Shown: positions 16,417 to 53,812, counted from the first letter of the stretch. The stretch is DNA of 64,000 nt from Devosiaceae bacterium (GCA_963676075.2 CAXXNZ010000024.1:32198-96197); one strand, 5' to 3'. Translations and numbers: made by a program. The notes: generated by a model not told the origin, from the sequence alone.

Positions 16417-16478
16417 CCGGTTTTGAGGTCACTCAAGCGAGACATGATACGGGATACATACCTGCATTTATGATTTGG

Positions 16479-16512
16479 AAAAAAGATGGGCGCACTCGGT
16501 CAGAGCACGCCC
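16479..16512 (-). terminator. rho-independent terminator of abfA (also at 52079-52112)
   Basis: The minus strand reads GGGCGTGCTC-TGACC-GAGTGCGCCC (10-bp stem including two G-U pairs) followed by ATCTTTTTT. Confidence 0.5.
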
Positions 16513-16539
16513 AGTGCAGGTGGGAGGTATCTGGTGGGA

Positions 16540-18051
16540 TCAGGCCTTCAGCCGGATCACCTGATACGAGTAGGCCGGCAGCTCGAGGCTGACGGTTCCG
16601 CCCTCGACCGAGGCGCCCTGGCCGTCGCACGGGGCAACTTCTTCAGGCTTTTCCGGTGAGTTGACCGCTTCGAGATCGGGATGGGTCATCACCTTGTGTT
16701 CGATGATGCGCGCCGCGTCAAAGCCCTGCAGCGCGACGTCGAGCACGATGGCCTCGCTCGGATGGCGGTTGACGATGAACAGCGTCAACGTGCCGTCTTC
16801 CGCATTGTGCACCGCCGAGGCGTCGACATAGGGCACATTGTCGCCATGCTCGCAATCATAGCCCGGGCTGTTAACGTTGAGACGCAGAGCCGTGCCCCGG
16901 CCATAAATCGAGGCGTAGTAATAGGGGTAGTAGATGGTCTGCTTCCACGCCGGACCGCCCTTGACGGTCATGATCGGCGCGATGACGTTCACCAGCTGGG
17001 CGATGGCGGCGATCTTGACCACATCCGAACGCCGGATGAAGGTGTTGAGCGCCAGCCCGACCATCAGCACGTCTTCGAAGTTGTAGATGTCCTCAAGCAG
17101 ACCCGGCGCATGCGGCCAGCCGTCATTGCCCTCGAGGATCTTCCTGTCCTGCTCGTTCGAGTGGTACCACACGTTCCATTCGTCGAACGAGATGTAGACG
17201 TTCTTGTTGGAGCGCTTCTTGGCCTTCACATAATCGATCGTGCTGGCGACCGTGCCGATATAGCGATCCAGTTTCTCGTTCAATGCCAGGAAGTTGGCCG
17301 TGTTCTTCTCCGGATTGCGGAAGTACATGTGCAGTGAGATGTAATCGACGTTCTCGTAGGACTGGTCCAGCACCGTCGCTTCCCAGTCCGGATAGCTCGG
17401 CATGTCGGCATGCGAAGACCCGCACACCACAAGTTCGAGGTTCCTGTCGAAGGCCCTGACCGCCTTGGCGGTCTCGTTGGCCAGATGGCCATATTCGGCG
17501 GCGGACTTGTGACCGACCTGCCAGGGACCGTCCATCTCGTTGCCCAGCGCCCAGAGCTTGACGTTCCACGGGTCCTTGCGGCCGTTCTTCTTCCTGAGAT
17601 CCGACCAGTACGACCCGCCGGGATGATTGACGTATTCGATGAAGCTGCGCGCCTCGTCGAGCCCGCGTGAGCCAAGGTTCAACGCCAGCATCATCTCGGT
17701 GCCGACGCTGTCGGCCCAGTCGGCGAACTCGTGGATGCCGACCTCGTTGGATTCCGAGGTGTGCCAGGCCAGATCGAGCCGGGTCGGACGCTGGTCCTTG
17801 GGACCAACCCCGTCTTCCCAGTTGTAGGCGGAAACGAAATTGCCGCCCGGATAACGCACGATCGGCACATTGAGCGCCTTGACCATGTCGATCACGTCGC
17901 CGCGCATGCCATTGGCATCGGCGGTTGGATGGCCGGGCTCGTAGATGCCGGTATAGATCGCCCGCCCCAGGTGCTCGAGAAAAGCACCGTAGAGCCTCTT
18001 GTCGATCTCGGCGATGGTGAAATCCTTATGCGCCGTGATGGTCGCGCGCAT
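16540..18051 (-). CDS. abfA: alpha-L-arabinofuranosidase, GH51
   Basis: 503-aa ORF of typical GH51 length with family motifs (VRYPGGNFVS, WALGNEMDGPWQ, ISFDEWNVW). Confidence 0.9.
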   Translation of the reverse strand: MRATITAHKDFTIAEIDKRLYGAFLEHLGRAIYTGIYEPGHPTADANGMRGDVIDMVKALNVPIVRYPGGNFVSAYNWEDGVGPKDQRPTRLDLAWHTSESNEVGIHEFADWADSVGTEMMLALNLGSRGLDEARSFIEYVNHPGGSYWSDLRKKNGRKDPWNVKLWALGNEMDGPWQVGHKSAAEYGHLANETAKAVRAFDRNLELVVCGSSHADMPSYPDWEATVLDQSYENVDYISLHMYFRNPEKNTANFLALNEKLDRYIGTVASTIDYVKAKKRSNKNVYISFDEWNVWYHSNEQDRKILEGNDGWPHAPGLLEDIYNFEDVLMVGLALNTFIRRSDVVKIAAIAQLVNVIAPIMTVKGGPAWKQTIYYPYYYASIYGRGTALRLNVNSPGYDCEHGDNVPYVDASAVHNAEDGTLTLFIVNRHPSEAIVLDVALQGFDAARIIEHKVMTHPDLEAVNSPEKPEEVAPCDGQGASVEGGTVSLELPAYSYQVIRLKA

Positions 18052-18104
18052 GGCTCCCTCCCCTAAAAAGCAATATTATTGGTCTGTACCTGTTCCTCGG
18101 ATAC

Positions 18105-18133
18105 ATATGAGCGCGACAAACCCCACCCGTCAA
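18105..18133 (-). promoter_or_regulatory. sigma-70-like promoter for abfA (also at 53705-53733)
   Basis: The minus strand reads TTGACG (18133-18128), a 17-nt spacer, then TCATAT (18110-18105). This resembles the alphaproteobacterial CTTGAC-N17-CTATAT consensus. The 11-bp palindrome CAATA-N-TATTG at 18071-18081 lies between it and the RBS. Confidence 0.35.
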
Positions 18134-18148
18134 GACGCAATCAAACCC

Positions 18149-19102
18149 TCATCGCTGCTGGTACAACCGCAAAACAATGTCCTGGTCGTAGTTCCCAAAT
18201 CCTCGGCCGAAGATGTTGATGCCGCCCGGGTGCTTGGCGTCTTCATGCACGCCGATTCTCAGACGGATGGATTGGTGGTCGTTCAGGTTGAGGTCGGCGA
18301 GGGTGACATCGGAGATGCGAACGCCGTCGACATAGGAGCCGTTCTGGCCGATGCGCCAGGTTTTCAGCTTGCCGTATTGCGAGCCTTTCAGCTTCCACCA
18401 GTCGGGCGTGTAAACCCCGCGCTTGTCGCCGAAATCGCCTGGCGAGGTCCAGGTGCCGACATCGACGCCATTGACGCCGAGCGCAATGTCCGAAGGCCAG
18501 TCGGCGCTGGTGCCCGGCACTTCCGAACTCAATTCGAGACTAAACTCGATGGCGCTCAGCGTGTCGACCGAATGCCGGGCCGTGTTGGGGAACTGGTACT
18601 CGACAAAGCCGCGCGTGAACCACAACAGCCCGGCCTTCATGCGATCCGGATCGAGGAAGGCGTCGGGAACATCGAGCAGCCCGACAATGCCGTCCGGCGT
18701 GCAAAGCCCGCACGGTGCCGCCACTTCGAAACTCGAAAACAGTCCGATCGGCATCGCCACCTCGATGCCGTCGTTGCGCGTACCCTCGAGATCGTCGCGG
18801 AAAGCGACGAGGATTTCGTCATAGGTTGAATGGCAGATCTTCTGATTGCCCTTGCGCGCCTTCTGCAGCTCGGTGCGGATGAGACCAGCCTTTTCGAGCA
18901 GCGCGGCATTGGACGACGCGGTCGATTGCGGCAAGTCGAGCCGCGCCGCTATGTCGTTGATATTGAGTGGTCCTTCGGCATGAAGCAGCTGCAGCATGGC
19001 AATACGAACCGGCGACGCGAGCCCCTTGAGGACATCATTGTCTTCTTCCGGGTCAACCAAAAGAAAATTGCGTGCCAAACCGCCACACCAACCCCGATAC
19101 AC
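18149..19102 (-). CDS. ArsR-family (winged HTH) transcriptional regulator with a large C-terminal domain
   Basis: HTH region LKGLASPVRIAMLQLLHAEGPLNINDIAARLDLPQSTASSNAALLEKAGLI. The start is uncertain: GTG 19102 or TTG 19078, which would give MARNFLLVDPEE. Confidence 0.75.
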   Translation of the reverse strand: MYRGWCGGLARNFLLVDPEEDNDVLKGLASPVRIAMLQLLHAEGPLNINDIAARLDLPQSTASSNAALLEKAGLIRTELQKARKGNQKICHSTYDEILVAFRDDLEGTRNDGIEVAMPIGLFSSFEVAAPCGLCTPDGIVGLLDVPDAFLDPDRMKAGLLWFTRGFVEYQFPNTARHSVDTLSAIEFSLELSSEVPGTSADWPSDIALGVNGVDVGTWTSPGDFGDKRGVYTPDWWKLKGSQYGKLKTWRIGQNGSYVDGVRISDVTLADLNLNDHQSIRLRIGVHEDAKHPGGINIFGRGFGNYDQDIVLRLYQQR

Positions 19103-19454
19103 TTCAAGACAATGTGTGTATCAGGCATTTTGGTATAATCAAGAAAAACTGAAAATCCGCGCATGAAAGTGCCGTAACCGGCGAGGATACGGAGCGATCG
19201 GTCAGGTGACCACCTGGCCCCCTGCTGGACCGCTCACGGCGAAAAGTGTCGATCCGATCTCATTGACACATTTGCACCGGCCGACCGGGCGTCCCGGTCA
19301 TCGCCCCGGGACGCATTTCCCGCTTTTCATGAATACGCGCCGTGTGAACCTTGTCGCCACTGATCCATCAAACGGCAAGCTTCTGCTGCCGCAGACTGCG
19401 ACAACATATCGCCTTTCTGCGCGGGTCGACGGCCACTGACAGCAGGCGGAACGC

Positions 19455-20010: not shown

Positions 20011-20019
20011 GAGTTGATC

Positions 20020-21009: not shown

Positions 21010-21012
21010 GGG

Positions 21013-23512: not shown

Positions 23513-23515
23513 GGC

Positions 23516-24316
23516 CTAGAATTCTCCTCGTTGCACCGCATCGAAGAACTTGCCGTAGCCATTCGGCCCCATCCAGAAGCGGATGATCCGCGACATGGCA
23601 TTGGACGTCTTGGTGGCGCCGGTGATGCCGTCGACTTCATAATCGTTGCTGGCCGGGCCGTGCTGCACGGCGAACCGCAACTCGCCATTGGCGTCGCGCA
23701 CCTTCACGCCGGCGAATTGCGCCTGCCAGGCCGGCTCCTCGATACGGCCGCCGAGACCTGGCGTTTCGACCTGGTCGGTAATCGCGAGGCCGGCGATGGT
23801 GTTCATGTCGCCATGCATGGCGATCATGCCCTGGATCGGACCCTGATAGCCGGCGCCGCTGAAGGGCAGGATGGCCAGGGATACCTCCTCGCCACTCCTC
23901 AGGATGTAGATCTGGACGAAGTCGGGCCGCGCACCAAGACCGGCAGTATCCTCCGCCGGCGTCAACTGCGTGTAATTGGTCGGGTCCTGCAGGGCGGCCT
24001 CGAGCGTTGCCGGGGTCACGTCCTTGGCCGCCCAACCGGTTTCGAGGTTGACGACCACCGCCGACAGCGCATCCCCGCCGGCGTCGGCGATCAGATCCTT
24101 CATGCCCGGAATGGCCGAGATCAGCGCTTCAAGCCGGACCTGTTGTTCGTGGGCGCGATTGGCCGACTGGATGGGCCTGAGGACAACGGTTGCGCCGTTG
24201 ACGGCCAGGGCACAGACCGCCGCGACCAGGAAGGCCACGACGATCGTCTTCGTGCGGCTTTCGTTGGGAAGCGCCAGAAAGCCCTTCCACCACGAAAAGG
24301 GATTGAGATCAGCCAA
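23516..24316 (-). CDS. nqrC: NADH:quinone reductase subunit C (FMN-binding)
   Basis: 266 aa with one N-terminal TM helix. It retains the flavinylation motif DGITGATKTS. Confidence 0.8.
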   Translation of the reverse strand: MADLNPFSWWKGFLALPNESRTKTIVVAFLVAAVCALAVNGATVVLRPIQSANRAHEQQVRLEALISAIPGMKDLIADAGGDALSAVVVNLETGWAAKDVTPATLEAALQDPTNYTQLTPAEDTAGLGARPDFVQIYILRSGEEVSLAILPFSGAGYQGPIQGMIAMHGDMNTIAGLAITDQVETPGLGGRIEEPAWQAQFAGVKVRDANGELRFAVQHGPASNDYEVDGITGATKTSNAMSRIIRFWMGPNGYGKFFDAVQRGEF

Positions 24317-25085
24317 GGTTCCGTCTCCTCAGGGCAAGCCACGAGGCAATTGCGATTTCGTCGAGAATGGGTGCGCACAGATTGGCGAGCAACGCCGCCG
24401 CGATGGACAGCTGGATGGCGGCCGCTCCCTGCCAGTACAGGGTGAACAGAACGATCAATCCGGCAAACAGCGCCCCGTAGAGCCAACGCCCGAGCTGGGT
24501 CGCGGCGCTGGCGACGGGATCGCAGACCAGAAGCACCAGCACCACGGCGACCGCGGGGTAGATGTCGGAAAAATCGACGCCGCCGAGAGAAGCGATGCCG
24601 AACACGACAAGGGCGCCGAGAATGATACGGGCGGAAAACACACCCGTCAGCCAGCCGACGAGGGCGGCGGGAATGGCGGCCCAGCCGATTTGAGCGATGA
24701 GGTCGGGCCAGGGTGCCTGCGGAAACCCGAACCCGACAAAGGACAGCATGACGGTCGCCGGGTTGAGGATGTTGCGGCCCCAGCCGCCGAAGACGAGTTC
24801 GGCCATGACCACGCCGAAACTCAACCCGAGCAACACCTGAACGACGTTGAGCTCGCGCGGCACGAGGATGGCAATGGCGAGCGCGGTCACGGCGCCGGCG
24901 AACGAGGGCGGCTGGGCGCGCGCCAGCATGAACACCACGTGCCAGATGCCGGCGAAGACCAGAAAGAAAATCAGTCGCCCGACGGCCGCAATGCCTTCGA
25001 CCTGCAGCCACATCACCGTCAGGGGCAGCAAGGAGGCCAGGACCATTAGCGCGACGGTTTCGCGATCCCACAATCCGCGTATCAA
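24309..25085 (-). CDS. nqrB: NqrB/RnfD-family membrane subunit, unusually short (258 aa), with no S/T-G-A-T flavinylation motif
   Basis: Conserved blocks FGGWGRNILNPATV and CDPVASAATQLGRW match NqrB/RnfD. The loop between them that normally carries the FMN-threonine is absent. The ORF overlaps nqrA (ATGA) and nqrC (8 nt), so it looks intact. Confidence 0.7.
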   Translation of the reverse strand: MIRGLWDRETVALMVLASLLPLTVMWLQVEGIAAVGRLIFFLVFAGIWHVVFMLARAQPPSFAGAVTALAIAILVPRELNVVQVLLGLSFGVVMAELVFGGWGRNILNPATVMLSFVGFGFPQAPWPDLIAQIGWAAIPAALVGWLTGVFSARIILGALVVFGIASLGGVDFSDIYPAVAVVLVLLVCDPVASAATQLGRWLYGALFAGLIVLFTLYWQGAAAIQLSIAAALLANLCAPILDEIAIASWLALRRRNLG

Positions 25086-26359: not shown

Positions 26360-26490
26360 CCGTCTACATCTCCGTTTGCCCCCGCAACACGGATCCTGAA
26401 GCGGTCCTCGTATTGCGAAACGTCGACTAATTAAGTACACTTACCGTAGCAACGACACGACTGTTCAGCAAGCGCGACTAGGGGGCTAGC

Positions 26491-27684: not shown

Positions 27685-27720
27685 TCGTCGCCTGCGGGCG
27701 AGGACATACCGGACATGATT

Positions 27721-36519: not shown

Positions 36520-37011
36520 GCACCATAGCATCCGGCCCGATGCGTGCCCTGACCATCAGGCTGCAGGACGAACATTTTGCCGTCGAGGCCGAAAACGTTC
36601 GCGAAATCCTCGATCTTGTGCCGATCACCGAGGTGCCCAACGCCTCGCCCTTCGTCAGCGGACTGATCAATGTGCGCGGCCGCGTCGTGCCGTTGGCCGA
36701 TCTCAGGGTGATGTTCGACATGGACCGGCCCAGAGCCGGACGAGGACACCAGGATCGTCGTCATCGAAACCAGTATCGAAGGCGAACCGACCGTTGTCGG
36801 CATCCTCGCCGACAAGGTTCATGACGTCACCGATATCGAGGCCACGGATATCCGCGAGGCGCCGCGCGTCGGCATGCGCTGGCGCCCTGAATTCGTGAAG
36901 GGAATTGGACGCTGGAACGGCGATTTCATCGTCATACCCGACCTCGGACGCATTTTTGAATCACGGGGCGCCTCCGGCGCGACCATGGAAGACGAAAGGG
37001 CTTCTCGATGA
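36516..37011 (+). pseudogene. cheW: CheW coupling protein with one +1 frameshift
   Basis: Frame 0 gives ...GLINVRGRVVPLADLRVMFDMDRP, then junk. Removing one base at CCC/A 36729-36732 gives EPDEDTRIVVIETSIEGEPTVVGILADKVHDV..., ending at TGA 37009-37011, which overlaps the mcp start. 496 nt minus 1 = 165 codons. Confidence 0.75.
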
Positions 37012-39401: not shown

Positions 39402-41609
39402 GTGAGACTTACAATCAAGGCAAAACTGACCGCCACATTCATAGTGGTTGTGGCCATGTCCGCAGGAGGCATGCTCTTGGCCAACCAAGACCTTGCGAGC
39501 CTCGATGATTCCTTCAACAACGCTATGAACGGCCCGGTCAAACGCATCTCCATTGCCGAGAACATCCAGAAGCTCTCCCTGGAAGTGGCGCAGGCCGAAA
39601 AGGACCTCATCCTGTCCACCGACGAGGCGACGAAGAACCAGATCGTCGCGACAATCGAGGAAGAGGCCAACCAAATCCGCGATCTGGAAAACCAGCTTCG
39701 TGACCTCTCGGATGAGGAAGGCCTGAGGCGGATCGACACGTTCAGCACCGATTGGGAGAGCTATCTCAAGCTCGACGAGCAGATTCAGCATTTTGCGCTG
39801 ATGAACTCCGACACGCATGCGCGTCTTCTTGCACAGAGCGACGGCGCAACGGCCTATGTCGCCATGATCGAGCCACTGCGCGACCTGCAGGATCGGCTTG
39901 CAGACAATCCGATGCCGACAGCCACCGACATGCAGACGCTTGGCGCGGTCGGACGACTGGAAGCCGATATCTCGGGGCTGCGTGCAACCCTGCTCGATGT
40001 CCTGGTGACACAGGACGATCCTGCCGCACAGGCCAAATATTCCGCCGAGGTGGACGACCAGGTTGCCCGGATCACACAGACCATCAAGGCGACGCCCCAG
40101 ATCTCCGCACAGGACCGGGCGCTGTGGCAGGGTTTCTCCGACCGCTTCGGCAAATGGACGGAGATCGCCGACACTTATCGCAACGTCTCGCTCGAGAATG
40201 GCAGCGCCAAGGCGCATGACCTGGCAGTCGGCGAAGCGGCAACGGCCCGGATCCTTGCCATGTCCAAGCTCGATGACGTCATCGCGCTCGAAAACGAGCA
40301 GTTGAACCAGGCCTCGGTCGACAACGGCCAGCTCTACGAACACAGCCGTTCCCTGCTGATCGCGCTGATGATCGCCTCAATCCTGATCGCGGCCGGCGCC
40401 GCCACCTGGATCGTGCTTGGGATCAGTCGTGGCCTGAACCGGGTGATGGCCTCGGTCGGCGCGGTCGCCATTGGCGATCTCGACAACACCATCGAGGTGA
40501 CATCGAACGACGAAATCAAGGACCTTATCGACAAGGTCAATGTGATGACCGAGAACCTGCGCGTAACGGCTGCGATCGCCGACGATATTGCCAATGGCGA
40601 TCTTACCGTCGAACCCAAGCCCTTGTCCGACAAGGACACGCTTGGCCTGGCGCTCGAACGCATGGTCACGCGCCTTCGCAGCGTCATCGCCGATGCCATC
40701 TCCTCGGCGGAGAGCGTCTCCTCGGGCAGTCAGCAGTTGTCATCGACGGCGGAAGAGCTCAGCCAGGGTGCGACCGAGCAGGCCTCGTCCACCGAAGAGG
40801 CATCGGCCTCGATGGAGGAAATGGCCTCTACCATCAAGCAGAGCGCCGATAACGCCTCTCAGACCGAAAAGATCGCTCGCCAATCGGCGTCCGACGCCCA
40901 ACTGAGTGGGGACGCTGTCGGCAAGGCAGTGGCTGCCATGAAGACCATCGCCGAAAAGATATCGGTGGTGCAGGAGATTGCCCGTCAGACCGATCTGCTG
41001 GCGCTCAACGCCGCGGTGGAAGCGGCCCGGGCCGGCGAACACGGTCGAGGCTTCGCCGTGGTGGCTTCCGAAGTCAGAAAGCTCGCCGAACGCAGCCAGT
41101 CGGCCGCCACCGAAATCTCGGCCCTTTCCGGCGACACGGTCACTGCGGCGACATCGGCTGGCGAAATGCTCGGCAAACTGGTGCCGGACATCCAGCGCAC
41201 CGCCGAACTGGTGGGCGAAATCTCGGCCGCTACCCGCGAGCAGAACGCCGGCGCCTCCCAGATCAACACGGCCATCCAGCAGCTCGACCAGGTGACCCAG
41301 CAGAACACCAGCGCAGCCGAGGAAATGTCCTCGACAGCAGAGGAGTTGGCCGGTCAGTCCGAGCAGCTTCAATCAGCGATCAGCTATTTCAAGATCAGCG
41401 CTCAGCACAAAACCGATACGGCTGCCGCAAACGCAACCATGAGCGATGGCACCGGAAAGTCGCGGCCGGGCACGGGCGGCAAGGCAGTGCCAAAGGCGCC
41501 GTCCGCCGCAAAGACCGCTGGCAAGAGCAGGAACAGCGGCGGGTTCGATCTCGATCTGGACCGCGGAGAAGACGAACTCGACGGCGAGTTCAGTCGCAGC
41601 GTAGCTTAG
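39402..41609 (+). CDS. methyl-accepting chemotaxis protein, paralogue of the upstream mcp
   Basis: 735 aa with a GTG start. The first ~25 aa and last ~230 aa are nearly the same as the upstream mcp, while the sensor domain is different. Confidence 0.9.
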
Positions 41610-42129: not shown

Positions 42130-42148
42130 TTCGAATGGAGTACCCGCG

Positions 42149-43018
42149 GTGCCAAATGTAGCATACGAATTGCCTGCGACCGGCTTGGAGGATCACCTCA
42201 GCGTCCGGGACTTCAATCGGATTTCCGATCTCATCGGAGAAAAGGTCGGGATCAAGCTGCCGCCGGCCAAGAGCAGCCTGGTCGAAGGCCGGCTTCGGAA
42301 ACGCATGAGGGCGGGCGGTTTCGAGAGCCTTGGCGATTATTGCCAATGGCTGTTCAACAACAACGGGTTGGATCAGGAGCTTTTGCATCTGATCGACGCG
42401 GTCACAACAAACAAGACCGACTTCTTCCGCGAGCCCGATCATTACGACAACCTCGAGAAGATGATCGTGCCGGAGTTGCTGCGGGTTCGCGAACGCAACC
42501 CGTTGATCAAGGTCTGGAGCGCGGCCTGCTCCAATGGTGCCGAAGCCTTTTCGGCCGCCATGGTTCTGGAAGACATGCTGCGGGTCAACAACACCTTCCG
42601 CTATGCCGTGCTGGGTACGGATGTGGCGATCTCGGTGCTCGAACAGGCGCGGCGCGCTGTTTATGCGTCGGACTGGATGGAACCGGTCCCCGCCGAAATG
42701 CTGTCACGCTATGTCATGCGCGCGCGTCGCCCAGGTTCACGGCCGGACGTCCGTATCGTCCCGGAGCTCAGGCGCCGGACAGCCTTCCGTCATCTCAACC
42801 TCATGGAAAAGTCGTACGGGATCGACCGGGACGTTGACGTGATCTTCTTGCGCAACGTTCTGATCTATTTCGAGAAACCTGTTCAGGAGGCGGTGATCTC
42901 GCGGCTTGTTGGCCACTTGCGACCCGGCGGGTTTCTTCTGCTTGGCCATTCCGAATCCATGATCGGCAGTGGCTTCTCCCTGACCCAGGTCGCTCCTGCA
43001 ACCTTTCAGAAGATTTGA
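42149..43018 (+). CDS. cheR: chemotaxis protein methyltransferase CheR
   Basis: 289 aa with a GTG start. CheR blocks [14 protein letters not shown] and [14 protein letters not shown]. Confidence 0.9.
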
Positions 43019-44172
43019 GTGCCTCAATGCCGGAAATGGCTGCCAGACCAGCGACGGGAGACAGGATCAAGGTCCTGATCGTCGACGATTCCGCCTCGGT
43101 GCGGACGGCGCTCAGCGACATCCTTTCCAGCGATCCCGCATTCGAGGTGATGGCGCCTGCCGGCGATCCCTATATTGCCGCCGAGCGCATTCGCAAGCAG
43201 GTTCCCGACGTCATCTTCCTCGACATCGAAATGCCACGCATGGACGGCCTGACCTTCCTGAGAAAGCTTCTGGCGCAGAAGCCGATCCCGGTCGTCATCT
43301 GTTCGAGCCTGGCCGAATCCGGGTCGGACACACTGATGCAGGCACTTGAAGCCGGAGCGGTCGACGTGGTGACCAAGCCGCGCATCGACACCGCCCAGTT
43401 CCTGCAGGATTCGCGAATGCGCATCTGTGACGCCGCCAAGGCGGCAGCTCAGGTGCAATTGACCGGGCGGCGACGGGCGCCGCCTCCAGTCAAGGTCGAG
43501 ACCAAGCTTACTGCCGACGTGGTGATTGCGCCGGTGACACCGCAACGGCTTGCCGCGCTCAAGGCGCGCACGCCTCAGACGGAACCGGTGGTCTGCATCG
43601 GCGCCTCGACCGGCGGCACGGAAGCGCTCCGCGAGGTGCTCGTCGACCTGCCGGCGGATGCACCGGGCATCGTTATTGTCCAGCACATGCCGGAAAAGTT
43701 CACCGAAGCCTTTGCCCGCCGGCTCAACACCCTGTGCGCCATGACGGTCAGCGAGGCGCGAAACGGCGACATCCTCGAAGCGGGCAAGGTGCTGATCGCG
43801 CCGGGCAATCGGCACATGGTGCTCCGGCGCAATGCCAAACGTTACACCGTCGATATCCTCGATGGACCTCATGTGGCGCGTCATCGTCCTTCGGTTGACG
43901 TGCTGTTCCGTTCCGCCGCTCAGAATGCCGCCGCCAATGCCGTCGGCTTGCTGTTGACCGGCATGGGCGACGACGGCGCCCAGGGTCTGCTCGAGATGCG
44001 CCAAGCCGGCGCCATGACCTACGCCCAGGACCAGGCGTCGAGCGTCGTGTTCGGCATGCCGGGGGCCGCGGTCGACAAAGGCGCTGCCGTCAAGGTTGTT
44101 TCCCTCGACCGCGTCGCGACAGAAATCGTCGGAATCCGGCGGAGTGGTGCCGAAAAGCAGGTGGATTTGTGA
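43015..44172 (+). CDS. cheB: protein-glutamate methylesterase CheB (REC plus esterase domain)
   Basis: 385 aa. REC block [11 protein letters not shown]...[10 protein letters not shown]. Esterase blocks [23 protein letters not shown]. Confidence 0.9.
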
Positions 44173-45965: not shown

Positions 45966-46003
45966 GTCATTTCACTGTTTCATGGAAACGTCGGAACATC
46001 CTG
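45964..46003. repeat. dispersed intergenic repeat, copy C (first half only)
   Basis: AAGTCATTTCACTGTTTCATGGAAACGTCGGAACATCC aligns with the first 40 bp of copies A and B. It starts at the stop codon of the upstream gene, as copy A does. Confidence 0.35.
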
Positions 46004-46152
46004 CGCACAAACGGGCATCGGCTGTGCACGAGGATGCACACTCCATGCGCTGAACCAGCACTGCATCTTGCGCCCGATGGCGGATACGAAGGCGGCGCTG
46101 CCCGAAAACAGCGCCGCAAGACAGTTCGGCGGAACGCGAACGAAAAACCCGA

Positions 46153-47076
46153 TCAGCCTTCGTTCATGCGCACGAAGCGGCCGTCCGCCTGCTCGATCAT
46201 CTTGCTTGTCGCCGCCTTGGCCAGCATCGCGTCGCTGGCCGTGATCAGATCGGTGGCAGTCTTGAGATCGCCGTGACCTGCGTTCTCGGTCGACAGCACC
46301 GACGCCTTGAGCAGTTTGGCATATGGATGCTGCGGGTTCTCGAGCACAGGACGCGCCGGCCCCATTTCAACCACCCGGCCCTTTTGCATGATGATGATGC
46401 GATCCGAGATGTAATAGGCCGTGGCGAGGTCGTGGGTGATGTAGATGACATGCACGCCGAAATCGTCGCGCAGCGACCTGAGCAGATTGACGATCGCCAT
46501 GCGCAAGGACGCATCGACCATCGACACCGGCTCGTCGGCAATCAGCACTTTCGGATCGCAGACCAGCGCCCGCGCAATGGCGCAACGCTGCAGCTGCCCA
46601 CCCGAAAGCTCATGCGGATAACGGCCCTTGATTTCGCCCAGTGACAAGCCGACCTTGACCAAGGCCTCGTCCATGGCCTTTTCGACAGCGTCGTGATCGC
46701 TGAACTGGAGGAATGCCCTGGCCGTCGACTCGATATAGCGGTCGACACGCTTGAGCGGGTTGAACGCCTCGAACGGATTCTGGAACACCGGCTGCATCTT
46801 GGCCATGAAGGCGGTGCGATCCTTGCCCCACATGCCGGTCGGAACCGGCTGCCCTTCGAACCGGATGGTGCCCTGGGACGGCGTATCGAGACCGAGGATC
46901 ATGCGCGCCAGCGTCGTCTTGCCGGAGCCGGATTCGCCGATGATCGTGAAGATCTCCGGCTTTTCCTTTTCCAGCACGAAATTGGCATCGACAACGGCGT
47001 CGGTGATGGTGCGTCCGAGAATGCCGCCCGAAGCAAAGCGCCGGTTGACGTGATCGACTTCGAGAAGGTGGGTCAT
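46153..47076 (-). CDS. ABC transporter ATP-binding protein (DppF/OppF-like)
   Basis: Walker A GESGSGKTT, signature LSGGQLQRCAIARAL, Walker B LIADEP. Confidence 0.9.
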   Translation of the reverse strand: MTHLLEVDHVNRRFASGGILGRTITDAVVDANFVLEKEKPEIFTIIGESGSGKTTLARMILGLDTPSQGTIRFEGQPVPTGMWGKDRTAFMAKMQPVFQNPFEAFNPLKRVDRYIESTARAFLQFSDHDAVEKAMDEALVKVGLSLGEIKGRYPHELSGGQLQRCAIARALVCDPKVLIADEPVSMVDASLRMAIVNLLRSLRDDFGVHVIYITHDLATAYYISDRIIIMQKGRVVEMGPARPVLENPQHPYAKLLKASVLSTENAGHGDLKTATDLITASDAMLAKAATSKMIEQADGRFVRMNEG

Positions 47077-48110
47077 GATTTCGCCTCCGCACCGATCGGC
47101 ATGTCGGCATCAAGAACCGGGCGCACCTCGTCGGCACGCCAGCACGCGGAACGGTGTTCCTCGCCCACGGTCGCAAGCGGCGGCACCTCGGTGCGGCACT
47201 TGTCGATGGCAAGCGGACAGCGCGGGTGGAAGCGGCAACCAGCCGGCGGATCGGCGAGGTTTGGAGGTCGTCCTTCAAGCGCCGGGCGCTGGCGCGTGTC
47301 GCCGATGCGCGGCAGACTGGCGACCAGATGCGCCGTATAGGGATGCTTGGGGCTGCGGAACAGGTCGCGGGTACGTGCTTCCTCAACCAGACGACCGGCA
47401 TAGATGATGCCGACCCGGTCGGTGATGTTGGCGTGCACCGCCATGTCATGGGTGACAAAAACCACCGACGACTTGATCTCCTGCTGGATGTTCCGGAGCA
47501 GGGCGAGAACGTCCTTTTGCACCACGACGTCGAGCGCGGTGGTCGGCTCGTCGGCAATGATGAATTCGGGATGACAAACCGTTGCCAGACCGATGGTGAC
47601 GCGCTGACGCATGCCGCCGGAAAGCTCGTGCGGATAGGACGTCAACACCGATGCCGGCAGCTTCAGGTGCTCAAGATGGTCCTTGACCCGGTCCCAGAAC
47701 GGCGTGCCTGTAAGGCCGAGCGGACGCTGGGCAAAATCGGCGAAGCTTTTCTCGATCCGCCGCACCGGGTTCAGCACGCTCATCGAGCCCTGCATGATAT
47801 AGCTCAGGTTCTTCCAGCGAATATTCTTGAGCGTTTCTTCGCTGGCCTTGGTCGGATCGACTATCTTGCCGCCGAAATCGAAGCTGACGCTTCCGGAAAC
47901 GACCTCCAGCGGCGGCCTGATGGCGGCGGCGAGCACCTTGATGAAGCTGGTCTTGCCGCTCGAGCTCTCGCCGGCGATGCCGTAGATCTCGTTGCGCTTG
48001 ACCGTCATGGTGATGTCGTCGACAGCCCGCACTTCGCGCGAGATGCCGTAATAGTTCATCAGGTAGTAGGCCTTGAGCCCTTCGACGGTGAGGATGTCTT
48101 TCTCACTCAT
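47073..48110 (-). CDS. ABC transporter ATP-binding protein (DppD/OppD-like)
   Basis: Walker A GESSSGKTS, signature LSGGMRQRVTIGLA, Walker B IIADEPTTALD, and a C-terminal oligopeptide-type Cys-rich tail (CRFHPRCP). Confidence 0.9.
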   Translation of the reverse strand: MSEKDILTVEGLKAYYLMNYYGISREVRAVDDITMTVKRNEIYGIAGESSSGKTSFIKVLAAAIRPPLEVVSGSVSFDFGGKIVDPTKASEETLKNIRWKNLSYIMQGSMSVLNPVRRIEKSFADFAQRPLGLTGTPFWDRVKDHLEHLKLPASVLTSYPHELSGGMRQRVTIGLATVCHPEFIIADEPTTALDVVVQKDVLALLRNIQQEIKSSVVFVTHDMAVHANITDRVGIIYAGRLVEEARTRDLFRSPKHPYTAHLVASLPRIGDTRQRPALEGRPPNLADPPAGCRFHPRCPLAIDKCRTEVPPLATVGEEHRSACWRADEVRPVLDADMPIGAEAKS

Positions 48111-48964
48111 GCGCCCATCCTCCGCAAGCGGCTGCGCGGATCGATATATTCATTCATCGACACCGCCAAAAGGAACAACCCGATGAACAGCATGACCACC
48201 AGAATCACCGGAATGGCGATCCACCACCAGATGCCGACCACCAGGGCCGAGTGGTTATTGGCCCAGAACAAGGTCGTGCCCACCGTCGGGATCGTGATGT
48301 TGGTGAACCCGAGCACGGCCAGCGTCACTTCCAGACCGATCGACCAGATCATGTTGGCCATGGCCGTCGAAAAGACGATCGGCATGACATAGGGCAGGTG
48401 CTCCTCGAACATGATCTTGAGCGGCGACATGCCGGCAAACATTGCCTGGCGGGTGAACTCGCGGTGCCTCAGTCCAAGTGCCACGGTCCGGATCAGGCGC
48501 GCGTCATAGGGCCAGCCAAAGCAGGCCATGACCAGCGCCAGATTGAACGAATTGAGGTCGCTCCTCAAAACGAAATAGAACAGCAACAGGATCGGGAAGA
48601 TCGGTATCGACACGAAGATGTCGGCGAAGAACATCAGCACCCGGTCGACAACGCCGCCCATGTAACCGGCCACCATGCCGACGAAGATCGAGATCAGACG
48701 GCTGACAAGTGCGACGGTCAGACCGAAGGTCAAAGAATTCCAGAAGGCGGTGGACAATTGCCAGAACATGTCCTGGCCGCGCGAATTGGTGCCGAACCAG
48801 TACTGGGCATTCGGCGCCACATCCATGGGCGCGGCATAGACCAGGCTTGGATCAACCGGCGCAAGGAAATGCAGAAAGCCGAAGATGACGATCAAACCGA
48901 CAAACACGATGCCGATGGCGAATTCGATATTGTAGCGAAACAGGTCGCGGAAAACGCTGAACAT
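48107..48964 (-). CDS. ABC transporter permease (DppC-like)
   Basis: 285-aa multi-pass ORF overlapping the downstream ATPase start. Confidence 0.85.
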   Translation of the reverse strand: MFSVFRDLFRYNIEFAIGIVFVGLIVIFGFLHFLAPVDPSLVYAAPMDVAPNAQYWFGTNSRGQDMFWQLSTAFWNSLTFGLTVALVSRLISIFVGMVAGYMGGVVDRVLMFFADIFVSIPIFPILLLFYFVLRSDLNSFNLALVMACFGWPYDARLIRTVALGLRHREFTRQAMFAGMSPLKIMFEEHLPYVMPIVFSTAMANMIWSIGLEVTLAVLGFTNITIPTVGTTLFWANNHSALVVGIWWWIAIPVILVVMLFIGLFLLAVSMNEYIDPRSRLRRMGA

Positions 48965-48967
48965 GAT

Positions 48968-49972
48968 CTATTCCACCCTCACGCGCGGATCGAGGATCGG
49001 ATGGATGAGGTCGATAACGAAGATCGCCGTTGCAACGGCGATGATCGCGATCGATGAGACCGCAAGCACCACCGAGGTGTCGCCCTCGACCACGGCGCGC
49101 ACCAGAAGCGAGCCGAGTCCGGGATAGGAGAACACCTGCTCGACGATGATGGTGCCGGAAAAGATTAATCCAAGTGTCATGGCCAGTGAGGTCAATTGAG
49201 GGATCATTGCGTTGCGGATGACGTAGCCGAACAGGATCGTCGGACGCCTGACGCCGGCGAGTTCGGCGTAGGTGACGTAATCCTCGGTGACGATGTTCGA
49301 GACCAGGGCGCGCATGCCGAGGAACCAGGTTCCGATGCCCACCAGCACCAGGGACAGGGCTGGCAGGATGGCATAATGCAGCACCGAGAGGACGAATTCG
49401 GGCGTCAAGCCCGGCCTGACGTTCATGGCGAAACCACCGGAAATGGGCAGGATCGGCCACAGGAATCCGAAGAAGATCACCATCAGGAAGGCGACGATGT
49501 AATGCGGGATCGGCTGAATGCCGATGGCGACGATGCCGAAGGCCTTGAGGAACCGGTTGTTCTGATAGTAGCCGGCCAGACCGCCAAGGATGTTGCCGAT
49601 CAGCCAGTTGATGATGATCGTGGTCACCAAAAGACCGGCAGTCCACGGCAGGGCCAGCATGACCAGCCTCAGTGCCGGTGTCGGGAAGGCCAGAAGCGAC
49701 GGGCCGAGATCACCTTGAAGGAAACGTCCCCAGAAATTGAGGTATTGCTGCCACAAAGGCACATCCATGCCAAACAGCTCGTTCAAGGTGGCCCGCAGTG
49801 ACTCAATGGCTTCGGGGCTGTAGGTCGAACGGCCGGTCACGCGGCCGACAATGGAGTCGACCGGACTGATGGGCGTGAGATGTGAAATGAAAAACGCGGC
49901 GGAGATGCCGGCGAATACAACGGCTGCAAGCTGCAGGAAGCGCTTGAGCACGAACAGGAGATAGGCCTTCAT
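48968..49972 (-). CDS. ABC transporter permease (DppB-like)
   Basis: 334-aa multi-pass ORF with N-terminus MKAYLLFVLKRFLQL, typical of this permease family. Confidence 0.85.
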   Translation of the reverse strand: MKAYLLFVLKRFLQLAAVVFAGISAAFFISHLTPISPVDSIVGRVTGRSTYSPEAIESLRATLNELFGMDVPLWQQYLNFWGRFLQGDLGPSLLAFPTPALRLVMLALPWTAGLLVTTIIINWLIGNILGGLAGYYQNNRFLKAFGIVAIGIQPIPHYIVAFLMVIFFGFLWPILPISGGFAMNVRPGLTPEFVLSVLHYAILPALSLVLVGIGTWFLGMRALVSNIVTEDYVTYAELAGVRRPTILFGYVIRNAMIPQLTSLAMTLGLIFSGTIIVEQVFSYPGLGSLLVRAVVEGDTSVVLAVSSIAIIAVATAIFVIDLIHPILDPRVRVE

Positions 49973-50056
49973 TGCTGTTGATTGTCCTTTCCGGTCCGTG
50001 CTGTCCGGAGTGTGGCGCCCGGTCGTGACCGGGCGCCTTGCCTAAGGATTGCTCGC

Positions 50057-51964
50057 TTATTGAGCGGGCTTCAGCTGGGTGAAGATATACTTCGAGTTCG
50101 ACCAGTTGTTGACGATATTGGCATAGGGCTTCTCTTCCGCAGTCGGGAAACCGGTCCAATAACGCGTATCGTAAGCCGAGAACACGTTGAACGACATGAT
50201 CGGCGTGATCGGCATCTCGTCCACCATCAGCTTGATGAACTCGTCGCCGAGCGCGACGTTGGCTTCATGATCGGTGAACTCGGTGACGCGCATCTTTTCG
50301 ATGATCGCATCGAGCCGCGGATCGGACCAACGCTGCCAGTTGCGGGACGGCTGACGTTCGCCAGGCGCTGCAACATAGTCGGAATGCCAGCTGTCGAGGA
50401 AGAAGCTGAGGTCGGGATTGCCGCCCCAGGTCTCGATCGACCAGGCCGTGGCAACATCGAACTGACCAAGATCAAGCGTGGTGCCGAAGATCACCGGGTC
50501 AGCGACCGGGGTCGTTTCGATACCGGCAAGCGTCCACTGCTGGGCGATGTCGGTGCCGAGACGGTTCACGACGCCATCGGTGAAGGTGTTGAGCGTGATC
50601 TTGAACTGCTCACCATCGGGCTTGAACCACTTGCCGCCCTGCTTGGTGAATCCGGCAGCCTCCAACAGCTCGGTTGAAGCCTGTTCGTTCTTCTTCCACC
50701 AGCCGTAACCGAACGACTTGTGGATCATGGCCTCTTCAGAGGGCACGGCCTCGCCGAACTGCGGCCGGACCATATCGGCGATACGGTCGCCAACGGTCGG
50801 ATCGTACGGCTTGATCTTCGACTTGCCGGTGTCCAGCTCGTAGTTGATCATGTAGTCCTGCAACGGCCCATGATAGTCGTCCGTATGCGTACCGGTCGGC
50901 GGCATGGCAATGGCGGAGAGCGTCGCAGCACCGCGATAGGATGCCATCGACATTTCCACCGGATCGAGCAGCAGGGTCAGGGCCCAGCGAACGCGCTTGT
51001 CGTCAAACGGCTTCTTCTGGTTGTTGAAGATCGCCATGATCAGCGTGGGATCGGGATGGGCATAGGGGAAGCCCGGGAACCAGCCACGTGCGTGTTCGTC
51101 CTGCTTGGCAAGGCTGAACATGCCTTCAGGCGACAGGTCGTGGATCATGTCGAGGTTGCCATTGACCATTTCGATCAGGCGCTTGTCGACGTCCGGAATT
51201 GACTGGTAGATGATGTACTTCGGCGCGGGTTCACCCCACAGGGCCAAAGCCGTCTTGTCCCAGTCCGGGCGCTTTTCCCAGATGTACCAGTAGCCGTTCG
51301 GGTCGTACGAATGCAGGGTGTACGGGCCCAGGCCGACCGGCGGGTTGAAGTTGAACGACTTCGGATCTTCCACAGCCTCGAAAACGTGCTTGGGCATGAT
51401 CCAGGCCGCGTTCCAACGCACCATGAACAGGGCGTGGAAGCGGGCATTCGGCTTCTTCAGCTTGAAGTGAACCGTATAGTCGTCCGGCGTGTCGACGCTT
51501 TCGACTGCGTCGGCGAACGGTGCGCTCCACTGATAGCCAGGGTTGTCCTTCTGAAGGTCGACCGTGTACTTGACGTCAGCGGAGGTGAACGGAACGCCAT
51601 CACTCCAGGTGATGCCGTCGCGCAGCTTCACGGTCATTTCCGTGAAGTCTTCATTGTACTGCCAGGGTTCAACGGCCAGTTCGTTGTAGAGCGAACCGTC
51701 GAGACCGGCATCCGGATCGATGAACCACAAGGTGTCGAGCACGAGCTGATGCAAGCCGTTCGAATTGGCGGCACCAGACCCGGCAACCCAAAGGTTGAAC
51801 GTGTCCGGATTGGAGGCGGGGGCCTCCGGATTGTTGATGATCAGTGTTTCGTTGCGTGGCAAATCCATCGTTGGCGCCAAAGCTGCGTCTTGCGCCATAG
51901 CCGAGGATGCAAAGCCAACAACCGCCATGGCGGCCGCAGCCGCCAGCGTAGTGAAGGTCTTCAT
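50057..51964 (-). CDS. ABC transporter substrate-binding protein, family 5 (peptide/oligosaccharide type)
   Basis: The track ORF extends to 52006. The likely start is ATG 51964, after GGGAGG, giving signal peptide MKTFTTLAAAAAMAVVGFASSAMA. Confidence 0.85.
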   Translation of the reverse strand: MKTFTTLAAAAAMAVVGFASSAMAQDAALAPTMDLPRNETLIINNPEAPASNPDTFNLWVAGSGAANSNGLHQLVLDTLWFIDPDAGLDGSLYNELAVEPWQYNEDFTEMTVKLRDGITWSDGVPFTSADVKYTVDLQKDNPGYQWSAPFADAVESVDTPDDYTVHFKLKKPNARFHALFMVRWNAAWIMPKHVFEAVEDPKSFNFNPPVGLGPYTLHSYDPNGYWYIWEKRPDWDKTALALWGEPAPKYIIYQSIPDVDKRLIEMVNGNLDMIHDLSPEGMFSLAKQDEHARGWFPGFPYAHPDPTLIMAIFNNQKKPFDDKRVRWALTLLLDPVEMSMASYRGAATLSAIAMPPTGTHTDDYHGPLQDYMINYELDTGKSKIKPYDPTVGDRIADMVRPQFGEAVPSEEAMIHKSFGYGWWKKNEQASTELLEAAGFTKQGGKWFKPDGEQFKITLNTFTDGVVNRLGTDIAQQWTLAGIETTPVADPVIFGTTLDLGQFDVATAWSIETWGGNPDLSFFLDSWHSDYVAAPGERQPSRNWQRWSDPRLDAIIEKMRVTEFTDHEANVALGDEFIKLMVDEMPITPIMSFNVFSAYDTRYWTGFPTAEEKPYANIVNNWSNSKYIFTQLKPAQ

Positions 51965-52139
51965 CGTATTCCTCCCATTCAGACGCCCACCTTTGAGGAC
52001 GCCCATGCATCAGCAGGCTACAATAACCCACACTTTTGTCAACATGATACGGGATACATACCTGCATTTATGATTTGGAAAAAAGATGGGCGCACTCGGT
52101 CAGAGCACGCCCAGTGCAGGTGGGAGGTATCTGGTGGGA

Positions 52140-53651
52140 TCAGGCCTTCAGCCGGATCACCTGATACGAGTAGGCCGGCAGCTCGAGGCTGACGGTTCCG
52201 CCCTCGACCGAGGCGCCCTGGCCGTCGCACGGGGCAACTTCTTCAGGCTTTTCCGGTGAGTTGACCGCTTCGAGATCGGGATGGGTCATCACCTTGTGTT
52301 CGATGATGCGCGCCGCGTCAAAGCCCTGCAGCGCGACGTCGAGCACGATGGCCTCGCTCGGATGGCGGTTGACGATGAACAGCGTCAACGTGCCGTCTTC
52401 CGCATTGTGCACCGCCGAGGCGTCGACATAGGGCACATTGTCGCCATGCTCGCAATCATAGCCCGGGCTGTTAACGTTGAGACGCAGAGCCGTGCCCCGG
52501 CCATAAATCGAGGCGTAGTAATAGGGGTAGTAGATGGTCTGCTTCCACGCCGGACCGCCCTTGACGGTCATGATCGGCGCGATGACGTTCACCAGCTGGG
52601 CGATGGCGGCGATCTTGACCACATCCGAACGCCGGATGAAGGTGTTGAGCGCCAGCCCGACCATCAGCACGTCTTCGAAGTTGTAGATGTCCTCAAGCAG
52701 ACCCGGCGCATGCGGCCAGCCGTCATTGCCCTCGAGGATCTTCCTGTCCTGCTCGTTCGAGTGGTACCACACGTTCCATTCGTCGAACGAGATGTAGACG
52801 TTCTTGTTGGAGCGCTTCTTGGCCTTCACATAATCGATCGTGCTGGCGACCGTGCCGATATAGCGATCCAGTTTCTCGTTCAATGCCAGGAAGTTGGCCG
52901 TGTTCTTCTCCGGATTGCGGAAGTACATGTGCAGTGAGATGTAATCGACGTTCTCGTAGGACTGGTCCAGCACCGTCGCTTCCCAGTCCGGATAGCTCGG
53001 CATGTCGGCATGCGAAGACCCGCACACCACAAGTTCGAGGTTCCTGTCGAAGGCCCTGACCGCCTTGGCGGTCTCGTTGGCCAGATGGCCATATTCGGCG
53101 GCGGACTTGTGACCGACCTGCCAGGGACCGTCCATCTCGTTGCCCAGCGCCCAGAGCTTGACGTTCCACGGGTCCTTGCGGCCGTTCTTCTTCCTGAGAT
53201 CCGACCAGTACGACCCGCCGGGATGATTGACGTATTCGATGAAGCTGCGCGCCTCGTCGAGCCCGCGTGAGCCAAGGTTCAACGCCAGCATCATCTCGGT
53301 GCCGACGCTGTCGGCCCAGTCGGCGAACTCGTGGATGCCGACCTCGTTGGATTCCGAGGTGTGCCAGGCCAGATCGAGCCGGGTCGGACGCTGGTCCTTG
53401 GGACCAACCCCGTCTTCCCAGTTGTAGGCGGAAACGAAATTGCCGCCCGGATAACGCACGATCGGCACATTGAGCGCCTTGACCATGTCGATCACGTCGC
53501 CGCGCATGCCATTGGCATCGGCGGTTGGATGGCCGGGCTCGTAGATGCCGGTATAGATCGCCCGCCCCAGGTGCTCGAGAAAAGCACCGTAGAGCCTCTT
53601 GTCGATCTCGGCGATGGTGAAATCCTTATGCGCCGTGATGGTCGCGCGCAT
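52140..53651 (-). CDS. abfA: alpha-L-arabinofuranosidase, GH51 (second, identical copy)
   Basis: Its 503-aa translation is identical to that of 16540..18051. Confidence 0.9.
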   Translation of the reverse strand: MRATITAHKDFTIAEIDKRLYGAFLEHLGRAIYTGIYEPGHPTADANGMRGDVIDMVKALNVPIVRYPGGNFVSAYNWEDGVGPKDQRPTRLDLAWHTSESNEVGIHEFADWADSVGTEMMLALNLGSRGLDEARSFIEYVNHPGGSYWSDLRKKNGRKDPWNVKLWALGNEMDGPWQVGHKSAAEYGHLANETAKAVRAFDRNLELVVCGSSHADMPSYPDWEATVLDQSYENVDYISLHMYFRNPEKNTANFLALNEKLDRYIGTVASTIDYVKAKKRSNKNVYISFDEWNVWYHSNEQDRKILEGNDGWPHAPGLLEDIYNFEDVLMVGLALNTFIRRSDVVKIAAIAQLVNVIAPIMTVKGGPAWKQTIYYPYYYASIYGRGTALRLNVNSPGYDCEHGDNVPYVDASAVHNAEDGTLTLFIVNRHPSEAIVLDVALQGFDAARIIEHKVMTHPDLEAVNSPEKPEEVAPCDGQGASVEGGTVSLELPAYSYQVIRLKA

Positions 53652-53748
53652 GGCTCCCTCCCCTAAAAAGCAATATTATTGGTCTGTACCTGTTCCTCGG
53701 ATACATATGAGCGCGACAAACCCCACCCGTCAAGACGCAATCAAACCC

Positions 53749-53812
53749 TCATCGCTGCTGGTACAACCGCAAAACAATGTCCTGGTCGTAGTTCCCAAAG
53801 CCTCGGCCGAAG
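53749..53812 (-). pseudogene. 3'-terminal 64-nt remnant of the ArsR-type regulator gene
   Basis: Corresponds to 18149-18212 (stop codon plus the last ~20 codons). Upstream of 53812 the sequence is unrelated to the regulator gene. Confidence 0.7.

Follow-up and report, generated by a model that had tools for sequence, protein, structure and literature searches.

In this work, we characterized a 64,000-nt stretch of DNA (hereafter the window) from a Devosiaceae bacterium (GCA_963676075.2, CAXXNZ010000024.1:32198-96197), in which two near-identical copies of abfA, a predicted alpha-L-arabinofuranosidase gene, each embedded in a 1771-nt direct repeat (R), bracket a 33.8-kb segment. Our results make it highly probable that this duplication is old and common to at least two diverged lineages, and that its copies have been homogenised by intragenomic homologous recombination: an independently assembled second genome displays the same layout, and within each genome the two copies are closer to each other than to their positional counterparts in the other genome.

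The abfA repeat and its edges

A repeat search, a constant-offset scan and a base-by-base comparison agreed on two copies of R, namely R1 and R2 (Table 1), at an offset of 35,600, with zero indels and one substitution (18200 T / 53800 G), i.e., 99.94% identity. These three comparisons bear out the near-perfect 1.77-kb repeat with its single mismatch that an initial annotation of the window had described and, together with Pfam scans, the topology and gene content that it had proposed: the contig is organized as A-R-D-R-B, where D is the bracketed segment and A and B are the outer flanks, with all relevant genes on the minus strand. In gene orientation, R comprises the 3' 64 nt of a regulator gene (20 codons plus stop), a 97-nt spacer, the full abfA gene, and a 98-nt tail of the spacer that separates abfA from the gene of a substrate-binding protein (SBP). 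Outside both edges of R, identity falls at once to about 25-30%, which is the random level, and comparison of the flanks of R1 and R2 by blastn, tblastx and tblastn revealed no remaining homology past either edge. The possibility that R constitutes a conversion tract within longer, diverged old paralogues was thus ruled out, as DNA and protein similarity are both nil past the edges.

The sole other repeat detected by self-BLAST of the window corresponds to two adjacent genes for methyl-accepting chemotaxis proteins (MCP; 37008-39116 and 39402-41609), tandem paralogues whose signalling domains share 79% identity over 749 nt. The number of MCP genes at this position varies among the genomes introduced below, with one in the outgroup (L084) and in the relative L086, and two in L085.

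A second genome with the same layout

Two metagenomic contigs were central to the comparisons. The first, from an independent assembly of another ENA sample (ERZ22147072:ctg24311l, 184,472 nt; loci L081 and L082), encodes protein P0001, with 96% amino acid identity to the abfA product, and is referred to as the relative; the second (ERZ21873832:ctg9746l, 1.17 Mb; loci L083 and L084) encodes protein P0002, with 94% identity, and served as a close outgroup. In the relative, P0001 is encoded twice, in direct orientation and 32,955 nt apart. One of its loci (L081) is arranged as cold-shock gene...abfA-SBP-permease-permease-ATPase-ATPase-MCP-like-CheB-CheR, and the other (L082) as cytochrome-Nqr-ApbE-CBS-regulator-abfA-TetR..., with the two copies matching over 1731 nt with one mismatch, followed by a 99-nt insertion in one copy and then 38 nt more of matching sequence. 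The downstream edge of R falls at the same nucleotide in the window and the relative, and the upstream edges are at most 6 nt apart.

Furthermore, the A flank is homologous in both genomes, over 18 nt beyond R1 and then over a TetR/AP-endonuclease/GFO/GH88 cluster (window 6777->1602), and so is the B flank from the R2 junction out to window position 58079; these junction flanks are unique sequence, orthologous between both assemblies and 12-15% diverged. Three novel junctions are common to both genomes, those between B and the regulator relic, between the transporter genes and the chemotaxis (che) cluster, and between R1 and A; therefore, the rearrangement occurred once, before the lineages split, or was passed between lineages as a unit. 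Two parallel and recent duplications, by which the lineages of the window and the relative were rearranged alike but independently, would require no concerted evolution; a grouping of copies by genome is also expected from them, and the che-cluster end, with differing neighbours in L084, L085 and L086, is a rearrangement hot spot. Nevertheless, three junctions would have to be remade, R1-A at the same nucleotide and with homologous sequence outside, and the same A and B flanks would be needed, which makes this the least probable of all the explanations considered.

An artefact of assembly or concatenation, with a single abfA gene or two loci misjoined through a collapsed repeat, is hardly more credible. 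Long near-perfect repeats are classic misjoin points, the layout is known from assemblies, and frameshifted genes at 3963-6770 could mean an imperfect consensus; however, the layout recurs on one 184-kb contig that was assembled independently, from a different sample and a different species-level lineage, the flanks at either junction are unique and orthologous across assemblies yet 12-15% diverged, and the edges are clean and lie at biologically sensible positions (regulator gene, spacer), so that the identical misjoin would be required in both assemblies.

The two genomes also displayed several differences around these junctions. A 9.6-kb segment of the window between R1 and the TetR cluster (6778-16423), carrying genes for an ABC transporter, an IU-nucleoside hydrolase, an M20 peptidase and a phosphoribosyltransferase, is absent from L082, the indel starting 18 nt from the R1 edge. 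At 3963-6770, the GFO_IDH_MocA, AP_endonuc_2 (xylose-isomerase-like) and TetR genes are split into 2, 4-5 and 2 reading frames, respectively, and are intact in L082, L088 and L089, the broken genes representing either a decaying cluster or local consensus indel errors. In the relative, an element of about 104 nt resembling a miniature inverted-repeat transposable element (MITE) lies in the R1 tail (L082 11573-11680) with a CCA duplication-like flank, and a second copy, 89% identical and inverted, lies at the transporter-che junction (L081 17567-17670); the element is absent from the window, and a similar-looking sequence is found at the che-cluster end of the outgroup.

Concerted evolution of the abfA copies

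The four copies of R (W1 and W2 from the window, X1 and X2 from the relative) were aligned with the outgroup locus L083. W1 and W2 differ at 1 of 1771 sites, and X1 and X2 at one site inside the repeat; W and X copies differ from each other at 133-138 of 1769 sites (7.5-7.8%), and both are about 15% from the outgroup. Among the sites variable within the four copies, 132 group them by genome and 0 by position, and both copies of the respective genome carry the derived substitutions polarised with L083 (47 in the window, 58 in the relative). By their shared junctions and flanks, the copies are positional orthologues whose duplication predates the divergence of the genomes, the paralogues are closer to each other than these positional orthologues are, and derived changes occur in both copies, which together constitute the signature of concerted evolution, a process documented for bacterial multicopy genes undergoing gene conversion (PMC8022953). 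The shared origin of the duplication and the grouping of copies by genome therefore require repeated homogenisation in each lineage. Codon differences within abfA (70 synonymous vs 18 non-synonymous) indicate that the gene is under purifying selection.

Judging from the site pattern, the homogenising process is likely to be non-reciprocal gene conversion, which is also the simplest one. Of the three reasons for the identity of the copies put forward in the initial annotation, ongoing gene conversion is the one retained, as neither a very recent event nor an artefact agrees with a relative that displays the same layout with an R 7.5% different. The annotation had likewise anticipated that relatives with the same order and diverged copies would mean an old, stable duplication; the duplication is indeed old, but its copies are identical within genomes and diverged between them, which points to concerted evolution.

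The same history could have been accompanied by homogenisation through unequal crossing-over, i.e., tandem amplification of R-D followed by collapse, in place of conversion. The R-D-R arrangement corresponds to the amplicon geometry known in Rhizobium, as outlined in PMC10932983 (citing Romero et al. 1995), cycles of amplification and collapse also homogenise flanking repeats, and the site pattern fits both processes. Conversely, each cycle duplicates or loses 33.8 kb of useful genes, no amplification is visible in either assembly, and crossover-free conversion is the outcome more often documented in rRNA operons and similar dispersed repeats of bacteria (PMC8022953); we thus give unequal crossing-over a modest chance, well below that of conversion. 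A smaller chance is given to R-D-R being a selected, reversible amplicon, in which crossovers between abfA copies would regularly amplify or loop out the 33.8 kb as a dosage or bet-hedging switch. If so, copy identity would be a by-product of the cycles, the presence of abfA on both halves would be selected and not an accident of deletion endpoints, and the block affected would include Na+-NQR, pyruvate formate-lyase (PFL), the chemotaxis cluster and the arabino-oligosaccharide transporter.

The single mismatch between the copies

The copies differ only at a synonymous third-codon position of the 64-nt regulator segment, where 20 of 20 amino acids are identical by tblastn. The mismatch occupies the same alignment column in both genomes (L082/L081 position 9852), 13 nt from the repeat edge in the window and 7 nt from that in the relative; on the coding strand, the base at this column is the outgroup's C in the relic copy of both genomes, and the regulator-linked copy has A (window) or T (relative). 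A contig-end error, at which the initial annotation had hinted, is not in agreement with the relative's single mismatch at the homologous column. Plausibly, the outermost changes would persist longer, as conversion needs homology on either side of a site, and the regulator gene, being functional, would tolerate changes there at synonymous sites only. Two other third-position changes, even nearer the edge, are nevertheless common to both window copies, and this account is thus incomplete.

Ancestral arrangement of the block

A scan of GTDB genomes with the abfA protein yielded, as the best among the matches listed, a Devosia protein with 73% amino acid identity; exact look-ups with the window's own proteins gave no record. 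In at least seven distant genomes, the genes regulator-abfA-SBP-permease-permease-ATPase-ATPase are contiguous and on one strand, including Devosia (L001), Rhizobium (L024 and L027), Oryzifoliimicrobium (L025) and metagenome-assembled genomes (MAGs; L004, L005 and L009). The same unit is found in the outgroup, in which L083 is arranged as cytochrome-NqrA-F-ApbE-CBS-regulator-abfA-SBP-permease-permease-ATPase-ATPase with a single abfA at the locus, and L084, about 6 kb further upstream on the contig, carries kynureninase and the che cluster, ending with an MCP-like gene, in the order and orientation of the window. This 1.17-Mb contig with its contiguous block is presumably chromosomal. When aligned to L083, the two window halves meet precisely at the R boundaries (19143->16442 and 53811->46149). 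On this alignment, the window order is the ancestral block circularly permuted, with an abfA copy at either end, and the proposal of the initial annotation that the joint of D and R rebuilds a coherent unit from the regulator to the second ATPase is corroborated by the contiguity of that unit in Devosia, Rhizobium, other genomes and L083.

Two additional abfA genes, whose products are 84% (L087, ERZ21873832:ctg9747l) and 90% (L090, JGI 3300010208) identical at the amino acid level, were found behind a LacI-type and not an ArsR-type regulator. L090 retains the operon-type downstream spacer, and the abfA gene of L087 precedes genes for PBP1C and alpha-2-macroglobulin. From these neighbourhoods, the regulatory context of abfA is seen to have switched more than once in this group.

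Origin of the rearrangement

As seen in relatives, the ancestral order is che cluster-kynureninase-PFL-cytochrome-Nqr-ApbE-CBS-regulator-abfA-SBP-permease-permease-ATPase-ATPase, and the derived order, read on the minus strand, is B / regulator relic-abfA-transporter / che...Nqr-CBS-regulator-abfA / A. In the route that we propose, a block of about 35.6 kb, from the che cluster through regulator-abfA to the transporter, would have been duplicated in tandem. A deletion reaching from the B side as far as the regulator gene would then have stripped the promoter-proximal copy of the che cluster through most of the regulator, and another deletion, starting 35 nt 5' of the SBP start codon and taking in the transporter, would have occurred in the distal copy. 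Comparison of the two genomes shows that, since then, mutations in one copy of R have been repeatedly transferred to, or erased from, the other, probably by gene conversion and possibly together with unequal sister-chromatid exchange. Considering the end state, we infer that tandem duplication plus two deletions is the best-fitting and simplest route; circle excision and re-insertion, or template-switching replication, would yield an equal product. A circle excised from the chromosome and re-inserted long ago in a Campbell-like manner is also a possible origin, which would still call for later homogenisation.

An empty B-A site was not found when the A-side GH88-like gene was followed into L088 and L089, where its neighbours are TetR/Tct/AP_endonuc/GFO genes and no B genes occur. 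The che-cluster end adjoins four different neighbours in five related genomes and is, by this count, a rearrangement hot spot. Within the che cluster, the CheR region (42206-43200) displays two haplotype groups, window plus L085 and L081 plus L086, with distances of about 0.10 within and 0.26 between groups, and the groups vanish further along; this pattern is a sign of recombination between lineages.

Several observations weigh against the history outlined above. In the 2.9-kb B flank, the search for relics of the deleted D copy gave only noise-level tblastx matches, leaving the route without relic support, and no intermediate genome was found among the relatives compared. The outgroup block lies in another neighbourhood, with GFO/trehalase/ABC genes by the che cluster and EF-G-like/SorC genes by the transporter, none of which occur in the window flanks, and an added translocation step is possible. 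Moreover, L085 and L086 are about as near to the window as L081 in the che region (p-distance about 0.12-0.15), and no transporter lies beside their che cluster; the layout therefore marks only part of the radiation, corresponding either to a subclade with a short internode or to a layout moved between lineages by recombination. The same-column mismatch in both genomes is explained loosely and incompletely, gene conversion is deduced from the site pattern, and the window's own layout is known from the assembled sequence.

The bracketed segment and the search for mobility features

The gene order of D is that of the outgroup. Among the approximately 30 D-region genes covered by the Pfam scans, which left window positions 1-13,300 and 61,300-64,000 outside, no integrase, transposase, replication or transfer domain was detected, the domains found being exclusively metabolic, respiratory, chemotaxis-related or transport-related. 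No tRNA or tmRNA genes were found across the window, nor short repeats resembling attachment (att) sites, the 1.77-kb gene segment being the sole bracketing repeat; these results agree with the initial annotation, which had regarded the block as other than a classical island on the same grounds. The GC content of D (0.58-0.66) is like that of the flanks. R encodes abfA only and no transposase, in disagreement with a composite transposon, and the outgroup carries the block contiguously, in disagreement with a genomic island that is absent from relatives or distinct in composition. In a search of the plasmid database, only abfA matches were obtained, at about 73% nucleotide identity on Rhizobium plasmids, with no close replicon.

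These data bear on the Campbell-type integration that had been proposed for the window and was evaluated here as the recent entry of a circle of 33.8 kb, carrying regulator-abfA-transporter plus D, into a resident abfA between A and B. A-R-D-R-B is exactly the layout that a single crossover gives, the joint of the circle rebuilds the conserved operon, and solitary abfA genes exist in other contexts in related metagenomes (L087 and L090). On the other hand, the relative has the same layout and homologous junctions although its R is 7.5% different, and the event is thus not recent; no replication, partition, transfer or integrase genes were found among the D genes scanned, which are of housekeeping type, or tRNA genes in the window; the block is contiguous on the presumably chromosomal contig of the outgroup; and the resident target would need to have carried the 64-nt relic of the regulator together with the 98 nt of operon spacer beforehand, which would make it an operon fragment and adds steps. 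Taken together, we consider a recent integration of this kind quite unlikely, and the duplicative rearrangement that the initial annotation had named as its equivalent the better reading, since the edges of R are operon-derived (regulator relic, spacer tail). The solitary abfA genes of L087 and L090 were also evaluated as the target of such an integration and rejected, as their LacI-type regulators are unrelated to the LacI genes of the B flanks (about 28-30% amino acid identity) and the upstream regions carry no regulator relic.

Within D, the NqrB-like gene (24309-25085) encodes 258 amino acids and covers about half of the NQR2_RnfD_RnfE profile. The outgroup gene has the same length of 258 amino acids, which makes a genuine short form or a split gene more probable than an error.

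Gene content and regulatory features

The features of the window that are relevant to the rearrangement are listed in Table 1.

Table 1. Coordinates of the repeat copies, junctions, genes and putative regulatory sites, counted from the first letter of the window.
Feature	Position	Strand	Remarks
Repeat copy R1	16442-18212	-	Regulator 3' end at 18149-18212
Repeat copy R2	52042-53812	-	Same as R1 save 53800 G
abfA copy 1 (abfA1)	16540-18051	-	GH51 alpha-L-arabinofuranosidase (predicted), 503 aa; 3' of the intact regulator, no transporter after it
abfA copy 2 (abfA2)	52140-53651	-	Protein identical to copy 1; first gene of the abfA-SBP-permease-permease-ATPase-ATPase half
Intact regulator	18149-19102	-	317 aa, HTH_20/ArsR-type domain; final 64 nt within R1
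Regulator 3' relic	53749-53812	-	20 codons plus stop at the outer edge of R2; L083 alignment starts at window 53811
Family-5 ABC transporter genes	46153-52006	-	Adjoin R2
SBP (SBP_bac_5)	50057-52006	-	Pfam
Permeases (BPD_transp_1)	48968-49972 and 48107-48964	-	Pfam
ATPases (ABC_tran/oligo_HPY)	47073-48110 and 46153-47076	-	Pfam
Remainder of D	19103-46152		CBS protein, ApbE, NqrF-A, multihaem cytochrome, PFL activase, PFL, kynureninase, then chemotaxis genes
Chemotaxis part of D	within 19103-46152		CheY, CheA, two MCPs, CheR, CheB, MCP-like 598-aa gene
A-side junction	16424-16441		18 nt outside R1, homologous to the relative's R1-A junction (window 16479->16424 vs L082 11676-11731)
B-side junction flank	53813-54260		Homologous, with indels, to the R2 flank in L081
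Transporter-che junction	45966-46152		Derived; only in window and L081; L084, L085 and L086 each with another neighbour
Strong terminator-like hairpin and T-run 3' of abfA	52087-52113	-	Inside R; twin at 16487-16513; kept in L081, L082 and L083
TATGTATCC 9-nt motif 5' of abfA	53699-53707	-	Twin at 18099-18107
TATGTATCC motif 5' of SBP	52052-52060	-	Twin at 16452-16460

The abfA product matches Pfam Alpha-L-AF_C (E 3e-49), and its homologues, annotated as alpha-N-arabinofuranosidase/ArfA, contain PF06964 and PF22848; identity to proteins of Devosia and Pelagibacterium is 73-76%. By domain architecture and similarity to annotated members, it is a GH51 (glycoside hydrolase family 51) alpha-L-arabinofuranosidase (abfA/arfA) of predicted activity. 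Orthologues of the regulator, 58-72% identical, adjoin abfA in relatives. The transporter genes are collinear with the outgroup L083 at 90.4% nucleotide identity and with L081 at 94.2%. Past R1, on the A side, lie unrelated phosphoribosyltransferase, M20 peptidase and nucleoside hydrolase genes; before abfA2, on the B side, only the 64-nt regulator relic is present, followed by a gene-poor stretch with a cold-shock gene. The position of the relic at the outer edge of R2 marks, on comparison with the outgroup, the breakpoint within the ancestral regulator gene. The gene-poor stretch (53813-56661) spans 2.9 kb at a lower GC content of 0.57-0.59, contains no open reading frame (ORF) with high third-position GC, and holds only a 69-aa cold-shock gene (54419-54628, minus strand) and small ORFs with no Pfam match; the corresponding L081 flank is homologous with many indels.

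The motif TATGTATCC has 4 matches against 0.02 expected by chance, confined to the regulator-abfA and abfA-SBP spacers and all inside R, and is only partly conserved in the outgroup. It may be considered a candidate operator and a candidate binding site of the ArsR/HTH_20-type regulator. A sigma-70 promoter scan of R2 did not find a consensus match, for which reason a promoter in the regulator-abfA spacer is proposed solely from conservation. R2 keeps this entire spacer; therefore, abfA2 and the transporter genes are probably still transcribed and controllable in trans by the regulator that lies beside abfA1.

Discussion

Examples of concerted evolution by gene conversion include tufA/tufB in Salmonella and the nifH copies of Rhizobium etli. 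As in such systems, the abfA paralogues are near-identical within a genome and diverged between genomes, their positional orthology is shown by the flanks, the tracts have sharp edges, and the copies lie tens of kb apart on one replicon. The case differs in that abfA is an accessory glycoside-hydrolase gene and not a highly expressed translation or nitrogenase gene, that only two copies exist, and that the duplicate arose from the split of an operon, each copy heading or ending a different half. Concerted evolution of dispersed duplicates by gene conversion has also been described for the rRNA operons of Escherichia coli (PMC8022953).

Identical nifH copies, as well as direct repeats that drive deletions and amplicons, have been described in R. 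etli (PMC10932983), and long direct repeats bracket the DNA that is amplified or deleted by homologous recombination in Rhizobium amplicons, according to the account of Romero et al. (1995, J Bacteriol 177:973) given in the same source. The abfA repeats resemble these amplicons in being direct, longer than 1 kb and nearly 100% identical, in enclosing tens of kb of a Devosia-related alphaproteobacterial genome, and in their predicted crossover outcomes, namely loop-out deletion and tandem amplification. Unlike in Rhizobium, however, the repeats consist of a metabolic gene and not of insertion sequence (IS) elements or nif/symbiosis reiterations, and amplification or deletion is here predicted from the repeat geometry on a 148-kb MAG contig.

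Tandem duplication and random loss is a model for permuted gene orders, for instance in organelle genomes. The derived order fits this model in that it can be cut as a single span from two tandem ancestral copies, with one boundary gene still present twice; it departs from it in that no intermediate or pseudogene relics were found, and in that both copies are intact and identical, with neither decaying. With Campbell-type islands, the window shares the A-R-D-R-B layout with direct repeats at the block ends, but the repeat is a 1.77-kb gene segment instead of a short att site, no integrase, excisionase, tRNA target, transfer gene or compositional contrast accompanies it, and the cargo is contiguous with the operon on one long outgroup contig. 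The case is thus a clean example of a known process, and corresponds to no new mobile element, kind of element or mechanism.

Several implications follow from this arrangement. For metagenomics, the case warns that long, nearly identical repeats in a MAG are not necessarily recent or artefactual, and the pair constitutes a test case for measuring conversion tracts in long-read metagenomes. An exchange between R1 and R2 would either remove or multiply the 33.8 kb that they enclose, with its respiratory, fermentative and chemotaxis genes; D has been retained in both lineages, and deletions of D are therefore apparently counter-selected. Finally, the window provides a natural example, in uncultured Devosia-related alphaproteobacteria, of a duplicative rearrangement that split an operon and left the boundary gene surviving on both halves, and of a gene pair without a housekeeping role that has evolved in concert over a divergence on the scale of speciation.

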